This document shows positions 27,541 through 27,710 of a stretch of 64,000 nt of DNA, piece after piece; position 1 is the stretch's first letter; each line of letters starts with the position of its first letter. This stretch comes from Escherichia phage JP4, in sequence record PQ330092; one strand, written 5' to 3'. A program made the position numbers and the translations under genes. Under the pieces are notes generated by a model that worked only from the letters and a program-made list of their open reading frames with translations, was not told the origin of the DNA and did no database searches.

Positions 27541-27710
27541 ATTTTGGACGTAGATATGTCTAGCCCTCCAGAAGTCTGGAAGTAAAGATGGCTATCCATC
27601 TAGACGGCTAAACGGCTAGATTTCTGGATGGCTGGATGGCTAGACGTTTGGACGGCTAAACGGCTAGATGGTTACACGTCTGGAAGTATAGACGGCTAAA
27701 TCAAAATTTT
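27541..27710. repeat. iteron-like cluster of short direct repeats (GACGGCTAAACGGCTAGAT x2, TCTGGAAGTA x2, GGATGG/GGCTAGACG)
   Basis: Direct repeats visible in non-coding DNA near the start of the 20-kb repeat unit. Confidence 0.55.

Follow-up and report, generated by a model that had tools for sequence, protein, structure and literature searches.

An array of metbox-like 8-bp units in the terminal repeat of Escherichia phage JP4: a candidate landing pad for the host repressor MetJ

Introduction

In the genome of Escherichia phage JP4 (sequence record PQ330092), of which we analysed a stretch of 64,000 nucleotides (hereinafter, the window), a non-coding segment at positions 27541-27710 is filled with short repeats, and the question raised by this locus is which protein, if any, recognizes them. 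A preliminary description, made from the sequence, considered the repeats as iterons and hence as a candidate replication origin or packaging site. Other possibilities are tandem operators of a host repressor, sites of a phage-encoded protein, and a functionless microsatellite or a structured RNA. As described below, the repeats are contiguous 8-bp units fitting the operator of MetJ, the S-adenosylmethionine (SAM)-dependent methionine repressor. The reading that we tentatively favor, while holding it with somewhat less than even confidence, is that of a giant operator for the host MetJ, which would serve as a cis-acting MetJ landing pad near the genome end.

Results

The repeat array and its position in the genome

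The repeats form a contiguous array at 27536-27703, consisting of approximately 21 units of exactly 8 bp, and a second identical copy of the whole array is situated at 47650-47817. The self-identity of the array at lag 8 is 0.53, compared to 0.25 ± 0.034 in 2000 dinucleotide-preserving shuffles (maximum 0.37; z about 8). The periodicity of the array at lags 8, 16, and 24 is the highest within the 46.9 kb of unique sequence of the window, and Tandem Repeats Finder (TRF) reports periods of 8, 16, 24, 32, and 48 for it. A coding repeat was considered and rejected, as only open reading frames (ORFs) of at most 29 aa overlap the array and 8-nt indels would shift any frame.

Most of what the preliminary description had said about the composition of this locus agrees with our counts. 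Both strings listed as occurring twice are present in two copies (GACGGCTAAACGGCTAGAT at 27603 and 27651, TCTGGAAGTA at 27575 and 27679), whereas among the three shorter repeats said to recur several times GGATGG occurs three times and TGGACG twice, but GGCTAGACG only once (27638). The array indeed is a GC-richer island (44.7% GC vs 38.1% in the non-coding stretch), and the described segment begins 749 nt from the repeat boundary at 26792, close to the proposed distance of about 750 bp. The surrounding gene-free stretch exists, but it is longer than the reported 1.6 kb, measuring about 1.9 kb (26529-28465), of which 1.7 kb lies inside the repeat.

Over the 2 kb surrounding the array, the identity to the jumbo coliphages of the PBECO4/121Q/G17/phAPEC6 group (genus Asteriusvirus) is 89-98%. 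A perfect tandem duplication with the period of 20,114 bp is present in the window, the first copy being 26792-46905 and the second one extending from 46906 to the window end; the copies directly abut and are 100% identical (26792-46905 and 46906-64000). As the copies are both adjacent and identical, the source is not an internal duplication but either a linear genome whose ends were joined or an assembly of the concatemer type, and the window, read in this way, is the right and the left terminal repeats joined head to tail. Direct terminal repeats of approximately 20-21 kb have been published for the genus Asteriusvirus (PMC13070987, PMC6563267); in particular, the repeat of G17 is about 20 kb (PMC6563267), and that of fEgEco12 is 20,993 bp, the termini having been mapped by PhageTerm and restriction digests (PMC13070987). 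In the records of relatives that start at the left end (listed in Table 1), the window segment 27440-27800 is found at positions 649-1018; thus, position 26792 of the window corresponds to nucleotide 1 of the packaged genome. The array spans 745-906 nt inward of this boundary. The start of the first gene to the right of the array was placed at approximately 28524 (the mechanical ORF call starts at 28466), and the ORFs neighboring the array encode small phage proteins of unknown function.

The units fit the MetJ operator

The MetJ operator consists of tandem 8-bp MET-boxes with the consensus AGACGTCT (PMC4239095). Each box is bound by one MetJ dimer, and repression needs two or more adjacent boxes (PMC3228920). 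We scored the units with the half-site matrix and thresholds of Augustus and Spicer (PMC3228920), the cut-offs being at least a quarter of the consensus score for a single box (3.15 bits) and at least the consensus score for the total of a site (12.58 bits). With the frame shifted by two bases, the metbox reading of the units was obtained, and all 14 consecutive boxes of the core pass the threshold, scoring 3.8-10.7 bits each (mean 7.3; total 102.8 bits). Two more boxes, ATATGTCT (27554) and AGAAGTCT (27570), pass in the same phase upstream of the core, the units interleaved with them being below the threshold. The single-box threshold is passed by 1.35% of the 8-mers of the window; elsewhere in the unique sequence the runs do not exceed two boxes, and shuffles of the array region never yield more than two boxes in a row.

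A periodic sequence is not necessarily metbox-like, and a column permutation was meant to separate these two properties. Among the 40,320 column permutations of the 14 units, 24 yield at least 13 passing boxes, and eight of these 24 are trivial rotations, so that non-trivial permutations fitting as well number 16 out of 40,312 (permutation p about 4e-4, that is, 0.04%). As a positive control, the same scan of 6.1 kb of the E. coli K-12 metJ-metB-metL-metF region yielded two multi-box sites and no others, the first between metJ and metB and the second 73 nt upstream of metF, with four boxes each and 4.5-10.4 bits per box.

The array and these E. coli operators are alike in that both consist of contiguous 8-bp metboxes without a spacer, with the same consensus, the same per-box scores, and the same tolerated variants (A/G, G/A, A, C/T, followed by G, T/G, C/T, T). 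Judged by the matrix, the phage boxes are equal to the genuine operators in per-box quality, and the array is approximately 3.5 times longer (14-16 boxes vs four in the same scan). The boxes occur in both orientations within one phase, for example AGATGGAT and ATCCATCT, which suits a two-fold symmetric dimer and not a directional iteron-binding protein. Taken together with the presence of metJ in E. coli, the host of the phage, the fit suggests that the array is a series of tandem operator sites to which the host MetJ is predicted to bind. Another tandem binder, TrpR, with 8-bp spacing on CTAG, was tried and rejected: by eye, its unit ACTAGTWM matches the array consensus at approximately four of eight positions, compared to seven of eight for the metbox.

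Boxes turn over among Asteriusvirus genomes, the phase does not

In the alignment of nine Asteriusvirus genomes, all indels within the array are 8, 16, or 48 nt long, i.e. multiples of eight. The array comprises 15 boxes in fEgEco12, 14 in the window and JNE01, 13 in E9.1, 12 in G17, and eight in SHEFM2K; in A4, 121Q, and UE-S1 there are 4-5 plus seven boxes with one in-phase non-box unit in between. The divergent species EJP2 (69% identity over the region) has 19 passing boxes of largely different sequence. According to BLAST place counts, the Asteriusvirus relatives carry one array per repeat copy and none elsewhere. Thus, individual boxes turn over, whereas the 8-bp phase and the agreement with the matrix are conserved.

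Shifts of the copy number by whole units would also be expected of a functionless microsatellite evolving by slippage, and perfect 8-bp microsatellites are numerous in IMG/VR, where a scan with a 5-box degenerate pattern returned mostly such repeats in unrelated contigs and only four genuine heterogeneous arrays. However, the units here are heterogeneous rather than perfect copies, and yet all of them fit the matrix of one protein; moreover, the array persists across genera and families while its boxes turn over. Similarly, the plus-strand RNA folds better than shuffles (z = -5.2, compared to -2.95 for the minus strand), as it would if the array encoded a structured RNA, but the helices follow trivially from the dyad boxes, are not conserved, and are removed by natural deletions of 8-48 nt (SHEFM2K lacks 48 nt of them), and the structured RNA was rejected. 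A search of 26400-28700 against Rfam with permissive filters produced only a chance snoRNA hit. We consider slippage or a structured RNA as an explanation of the array to be very improbable.

Similar arrays near the genome ends of other phages

When the array alone was used as a query in a sensitive blastn search, with subsequent matrix scans checking the phase and the number of boxes, matches with 68-77% identity, confined to the array, were found in several phage groups. These were distant jumbo phages (Serratia phage BF, the Erwinia pEa_SNUABM phages, Pectobacterium phage CBB, Cronobacter phage GAP32, Yersinia phage fHe-Yen9-04, and Xanthomonas phage XbC2), T5-like phages of Vibrio, Aeromonas, and Providencia, and the T7-like coliphages PGT2 and phiKT. 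Thus, arrays of 5-16 boxes are present in independent lineages (Table 1), while phage T5 itself has no metbox array by the matrix scan. No similar array was found in the 5,426 complete E. coli genomes and 72,556 plasmids searched; hence, it is not a host or plasmid element.

Wherever the ends were mapped, that is, in three lineages, the array lies within the terminal repeat and less than 1 kb from the physical end. In four jumbo genera the distance from the left end is 648-906 nt (648-805 nt in Eneladusvirus and Mimasvirus). In the T7-like phage PGT2 (Ermolevavirus), the array is within the 260-bp terminal repeat, verified by the identity of 1-260 and 42427-42686. In VF16, whose left repeat of 7,427 bp was mapped by PhageTerm, approximately 400 nt separate the array from the inner boundary of this repeat; in the right copy, the array is hence approximately 400 nt away from the right physical end.

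In both VF16 and Pontus, DnaA boxes and palindromes similar to LexA boxes are found on one side of the array, and repeats GTGCAAAT, resembling the T5 DRD repeats, on the other side; judged by this layout, the surroundings of the array in these two phages are the equivalent of Repeat Region 3 of T5.

A separate case is the unclassified 46-kb Vibrio phage D164 (OZ196264.1), which has four metbox arrays with 33 boxes in 1.8 kb (including 2090-2201, 3698-3793, and 3802-3865), partly under tiny coding sequences annotated as hypothetical proteins and probably spurious.

Replication origin or terminase site

If the repeats were iterons of a replication origin, or a terminase (pac-like) site setting the boundary of the terminal repeat, a location near a genome end would be natural. 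In line with this, the array is 795 nt from the mapped left end, within the terminal repeat; the cumulative GC skew reaches its minimum in the window at approximately 26-27 kb; an AT-rich tract and inward-facing promoters adjoin the array; and other phages with direct terminal repeats also have arrays near the ends. However, iterons of origins are directional, about 17-22 bp long, and helically phased, whereas the units of the array are 8 bp long, unspaced, dyad-symmetric, and present in both orientations. The DnaA box (TTWTNCACA) is absent from 26529-28465, and its counts over the whole window are at the chance level. No Rep-like gene or other initiator, terminase, or DNA-binding domain was detected by Pfam in the ten flanking ORFs. 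The AT-rich tract is 23 nt long (27700-27722) and is the only AT-rich element near the array. Finally, at the position of the skew minimum the genome ends are joined and the gene composition changes, and hence the minimum is uninformative about an origin.

The composition change itself deserves a remark. Directly upstream of the repeat, at 21961-26528, there are approximately 25 tightly packed plus-strand ORFs of 59-81 aa, whose coding strand is rich in C and A (GC skew about -0.2), opposite to the genes within the repeat; this produces an apparent skew inflection at the boundary.

The terminase variant is disfavored by two phages from this wider group of jumbo phages whose long terminal repeats have been mapped, fENko-Kae01 (repeat of 19,736 bp; 21 kb scanned) and XaC1 (32,031 bp; 35 kb scanned). 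Neither has the array, yet they share with the window another block near the left end, CTCCATCCTAAATCTCGATCCTAAAAATTTTGGAGTACC, which is conserved in BF, XbC2, CBB, and fENko-Kae01, and partly in XaC1. As this block is retained in relatives without the array, it is more likely than the array to be a terminus or packaging element. Besides, T5-like and T7-like phages have unrelated terminases, which would not recognize one and the same sequence; a host factor, by contrast, would account for its presence in both. Overall, an origin or a terminase site seems to us highly unlikely. Of the preliminary description, the part that stands is an iterated, presumably protein-binding array whose position near the repeat boundary is not accidental, since this boundary is the mapped left end of relatives and similar arrays occur in the terminal repeats of two other lineages; the role as an origin is not supported.

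Candidate binder and host range

MetJ is limited to Enterobacterales, Pasteurellales, Vibrionales, Aeromonadales, and Alteromonadales (PMC4239095). The reported hosts of the array-bearing phages that we found all belong to MetJ-bearing orders, with the exception of the host of XbC2. A phage-encoded MetJ was rejected: a tblastn search of 50,697 phage records with E. coli MetJ as a query revealed no homologue, only host-DNA contaminants being returned. Since three unrelated phage families share the array and none has a MetJ homologue, the binder is most simply a host protein.

Several observations weigh against the reading of the array as a cis-acting MetJ operator. The half-site frequencies agree with the host matrix (r = 0.976 pooled over 171 phage boxes, with minor bases included, and r = 0.95 for the boxes of the window), but this comparison is partly circular, the boxes having been picked with the same matrix. 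At half-site position 3, the frequency of C is 36% here and 27% in all phage arrays, compared to 10% in the host operators (p = 3e-4); this C corresponds to G at box position 6, as in AGACGGCT. Such an excess means that the binder may differ slightly in specificity or that the boxes may be deliberately weakened. Further, the context is not that of a MetJ operator, as no recognizable promoter overlaps the array and no methionine gene adjoins it; the array is placed in the terminal repeat of a virulent phage, while, to our knowledge, every known MetJ operator belongs to a methionine gene or promoter. The only ground for a role in cis is the position, and large non-coding DNA in these phages clusters near the ends anyway. 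The Klebsiella phage fENko-Kae01 lacks the array although its host has MetJ; hence, the array is dispensable for this phage type. Lastly, XbC2 has an intact array although its reported host is Xanthomonas vesicatoria, from an order without MetJ; Xanthomonadales use SamR instead (PMC4239095).

With regard to the latter phage, XbC2 has more than 50% intergenomic similarity with phages of Erwinia, Serratia, and Pectobacterium, and its anomalous host could reflect a recent host switch or, speculatively, host strains that are misidentified enterobacteria. The loss of the array in the Xanthomonas phage XaC1 was considered as a test of host dependence and found uninformative, as fENko-Kae01, infecting Klebsiella, also lacks it.

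Some of these deviations would be explained if the array were bound by a protein of the phage, for instance a ribbon-helix-helix protein with 8-bp dimer spacing and a similar specificity, preferring the box AGAYGGCT. Such a binder would fit the systematic G excess at box position 6 relative to the host metboxes and the intact array of XbC2, and the terminal repeat codes for many small proteins of unknown function. Against it, each of the three unrelated families (jumbo myoviruses, T5-like, and T7-like phages) would need a protein of the same specificity, the phage records contain no MetJ homologue, the fit to the host matrix extends to the minor-base frequencies, and, with one exception, the reported hosts are from MetJ-bearing orders. 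A phage-encoded binder is, in our opinion, quite improbable.

Proposed role of the array

The sequence fit, the conserved phase, the position, and the taxonomic distribution are observations; binding of MetJ in vivo and a function in cis are what we infer. As one dimer binds each box and adjacent boxes are needed, a cooperative MetJ-SAM filament of approximately 110-150 bp would coat the array. The coating would start once the terminal repeat enters a SAM-containing E. coli cell and would then be repeated on each replicated copy. The filament would be situated about 0.8 kb from the physical left end, between the end-proximal elements (the left-end block and the double Chi hairpin described below) and the first early genes, and would be a SAM-dependent protein block or anchor in cis, tied to the biology of the terminal repeat. 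It could insulate from transcription or translocating enzymes, protect or hold the entering end, or help to process the ends.

A broader version of this reading covers the three array-bearing families with direct terminal repeats, namely the Asteriusvirus/Eneladusvirus/Mimasvirus jumbo phages, the T5-like phages of Vibrio, Aeromonas, and Providencia, and the T7-like Ermolevavirus. These unrelated families might have independently acquired, or exchanged, MetJ arrays as a SAM-gated structural cofactor at the genome end, that is, a checkpoint or clamp for entry, end protection, or end processing; in the T5-like phages the array would then be a part of the injection stop signal, together with sites of the DnaA, LexA, and Fur types. 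We regard this generalization as possible but doubtful.

The main alternative to a function in cis is a decoy, or sponge: the two arrays of each genome, growing in number as the phage replicates, would titrate MetJ away from the met regulon of the host and thereby derepress methionine and SAM synthesis and transport, to the advantage of a very large phage. The length of the array, 14-16 boxes, is far beyond the need of promoter regulation, the host operators having four; the number of boxes varies between 8 and 15 among close relatives, as expected of a dosage element; the phage D164 with its 33 boxes in four arrays would suit a sponge, as would the absence of promoter overlap. On the other hand, T5-like and T7-like phages shut off or degrade the host chromosome early, so that derepression of the host would be of little use to the array-bearing phages of these types. 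Moreover, the position of a sponge would be arbitrary, but the array is in the terminal repeat, less than 1 kb from the end, in each of the three lineages whose ends were mapped. We consider the decoy unlikely; if it were true, the array would be an auxiliary metabolic element without a gene.

In the literature, we found no paper tying MetJ or metboxes to phage genomes or describing metJ as a phage host factor, and we are not aware of a MetJ operator having been reported before either in a virulent phage or in a context other than methionine metabolism. The array has the appearance of a MetJ operator of unprecedented length, redeployed in phage terminal repeats. Provided that MetJ binds it, this would be the longest MetJ operator that we are aware of (14-16 boxes vs four in the scanned E. 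coli operators), and the phage would recruit a metabolite sensor of the host through non-coding DNA alone. This would also offer a concrete and cheap experimental handle on the role of the large untranslated regions in long terminal repeats.

Comparison with known systems

A close parallel is the injection-stop region of T5, as both it and the array belong to a large untranslated region in a long terminal repeat, packed with sites, putative ones in the case of the array, for a host DNA-binding protein. Repeat Region 3 of T5 has been equated with the injection stop signal, and sites of a host protein, DnaA, have been proposed to act there in cis on the incoming DNA (Davison, bioRxiv 10.1101/866236). 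In the T5-like phages of Vibrio and Aeromonas, the metbox array is inside a region of the injection-stop type, next to DnaA boxes. In contrast, in the jumbo phage the array is close to the left, i.e. outer, end of the repeat rather than to its inner boundary, and is not accompanied by DnaA or LexA-like boxes; also, two-step injection is not known for these jumbo phages, unlike T5. A location at the inner boundary together with paired DnaA boxes in inverted repeats, which characterizes an injection stop, is found in VF16 and Pontus and not for the array of the window. How the T5 injection stop signal works has been a question for decades, and, provided that MetJ binds the arrays, the idea of a signal built by DNA-binding proteins of the host would become directly testable.

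Several other sites were noted in these regions. In T5 (AY587007.1), 'palindrome D' (9330-9349) coincides with the LexA box consensus at 19 of 20 positions, and the 'DRC' repeats (9468-9640) match the Fur box at 15-16 of 19 positions. In the Vibrio T5-like phages, LexA-like boxes (18 of 20 positions; Pontus 782-801, VF16 6844-6863) are present beside the DnaA boxes and the metbox arrays. Several DNA-binding proteins of the host thus seem to have their sites clustered in the injection-stop region. The Davison preprint (bioRxiv 10.1101/866236) has no mention of MetJ, LexA, Fur, or Vibrio phages.

Other parallels are more distant and concern the principle of action. A host DNA-binding protein as an architectural cofactor near the genome end is common to the array, as proposed, and to cosB of phage lambda, a packaging region where the host factor IHF binds the site I1. 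Lambda, however, uses a single bending site, whereas the phage considered here would employ a metabolite-gated repressor on a long array of cooperative sites. The Omega protein of pSM19035 is a ribbon-helix-helix protein whose dimers form a filament on contiguous heptads in either orientation, and the datA locus is a cluster of sites that titrates DnaA. These two are analogies of mechanism only, the former for a filament on repeats shorter than the helical period and the latter for titration, and they differ from the array in the proteins, in the replicons, and in the 7-bp period.

Neighboring elements and other observations

The coordinates of the array, of the elements surrounding it, and of the arrays of other phages are collected in Table 1.

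Table 1. Metbox-like arrays and neighboring elements in the window and arrays in other phages. Strand: +, plus; -, minus; a dot, no strand assigned.
Genome	Feature	Coordinates	Strand	Remarks
Window	Terminal repeat copy 1	26792..46905	+	26792 is nucleotide 1 (physical left end) of fEgEco12, vB_Ec-M-J, BF17, ELP-22, CRJP21, E9.1
Window	Conserved left-end block CTCCATCCTAAATCTCGATCCTAAAAATTTTGGAGTACC	26990..27030	+	From alignment; about 200-240 nt from the physical left end
Window	Perfect sigma-70 consensus promoter TTGACA-16-TATAAT with CAGTACTG in the spacer	27157..27184	+	Reads towards the array
Window	Hairpin CCACCAGCacaaGCTGGTGG with the Chi octamer on both strands	27369..27388	.	Some 580 nt inward of the left end; the first metbox follows 165 nt downstream
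Window	Degenerate upstream part of the array, same 8-bp phase	27536..27585	.	Conserved in nine Asteriusvirus genomes
Window	Core array, 14 contiguous 8-bp metbox-like units	27586..27697	.	Each unit passes the published MetJ half-site matrix
Window	Core units 1-7, in order: AGATGGCT ATCCATCT AGACGGCT AAACGGCT AGATTTCT GGATGGCT GGATGGCT	27586 onward		
Window	Core units 8-14, in order: AGACGTTT GGACGGCT AAACGGCT AGATGGTT ACACGTCT GGAAGTAT AGACGGCT	up to 27697		
Window	Motif TTTTTCCAATAGTTCCCCTACCGCGT, directly downstream of the array	27717..27742	+	Conserved beside the array also in Serratia phage BF and XbC2
Window	Sigma-70-like promoter TTGACA-17-GATAAT	27795..27823	-	Reads leftwards to the array
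Window	Second CAGTACTG-TATAAT element	27921-27948	-	Reads leftwards
Window	Identical second core array	47700..47811	.	In terminal repeat copy 2; TRF gives the same arrays at +20,114
BF	4+4+3 boxes	697-800		Matrix scan
XbC2	2+4+8 boxes	648-775		Matrix scan
CBB	2+4+7 boxes	685-804		Matrix scan; within the annotated 22,456-bp repeat
Pontus	15 boxes	Position not mapped		Matrix scan
AhSzw-1	16 boxes (138.9 bits)	Position not mapped		Matrix scan
PSTCR5	9 boxes	Position not mapped		Matrix scan
PVo5	8 boxes	Position not mapped		Matrix scan
D164	14+12+4+3 boxes	Position not mapped to ends		Matrix scan
VF16	5 boxes	6990-7029		Matrix scan
PGT2	9 boxes	38-109		Matrix scan

Given the direction of the three promoters in Table 1, the array is flanked by convergent early transcription. 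In G17, the counterpart of the hairpin with the double Chi carries a terminator annotation; the hairpin may be linked to the array.

The Chi octamer GCTGGTGG occurs 22 times in the window (0.67 expected): in the hairpin, at 33150, 33212, 37252, 38715, 39983, 42331, 43737, and 45537, in the copies of these sites at +20,114, and also at 14814-15334. Within one terminal repeat, there are eight plus-strand and two minus-strand Chi sites, and the first minus-strand site is only 577 nt from the left end, hairpinned with a plus-strand copy. The plus-strand sites have the orientation in which Chi acts on RecBCD coming in through the right end; together, the sites of the two strands suggest that both genome ends are Chi-protected.

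The palindrome CAGTACTG is present in 79 copies in the window, compared to 0.6 expected (e.g. at 27171, 27927, 30072, 31611, 35431, 37552, and 45584), and 12 of the copies are within the 1.9-kb non-coding stretch. Some copies are situated in the spacers of sigma-70-like early promoters of the form TTGACA-N8-CAGTACTG-N0-2-TATAAT, and the palindrome may be an operator or a promoter element for early phage transcription.

The unit GAATTTTGGGCGTAA..GCACCC..GGGG..TTTCTCG is repeated at 27864-27940 and 28079-28165 (also at 27515-27526), followed by a minus-strand TATAAT promoter, and is conserved in BF, XbC2, and XaC1; these units may represent small leftward transcripts, possibly small RNAs, in the untranslated left end. 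Finally, repeats with a 10-bp period, (A)GTAATCATA and ATCAAAAGTA, are located at 26642-26685 and 26856-26879, on either side of the terminal-repeat boundary.

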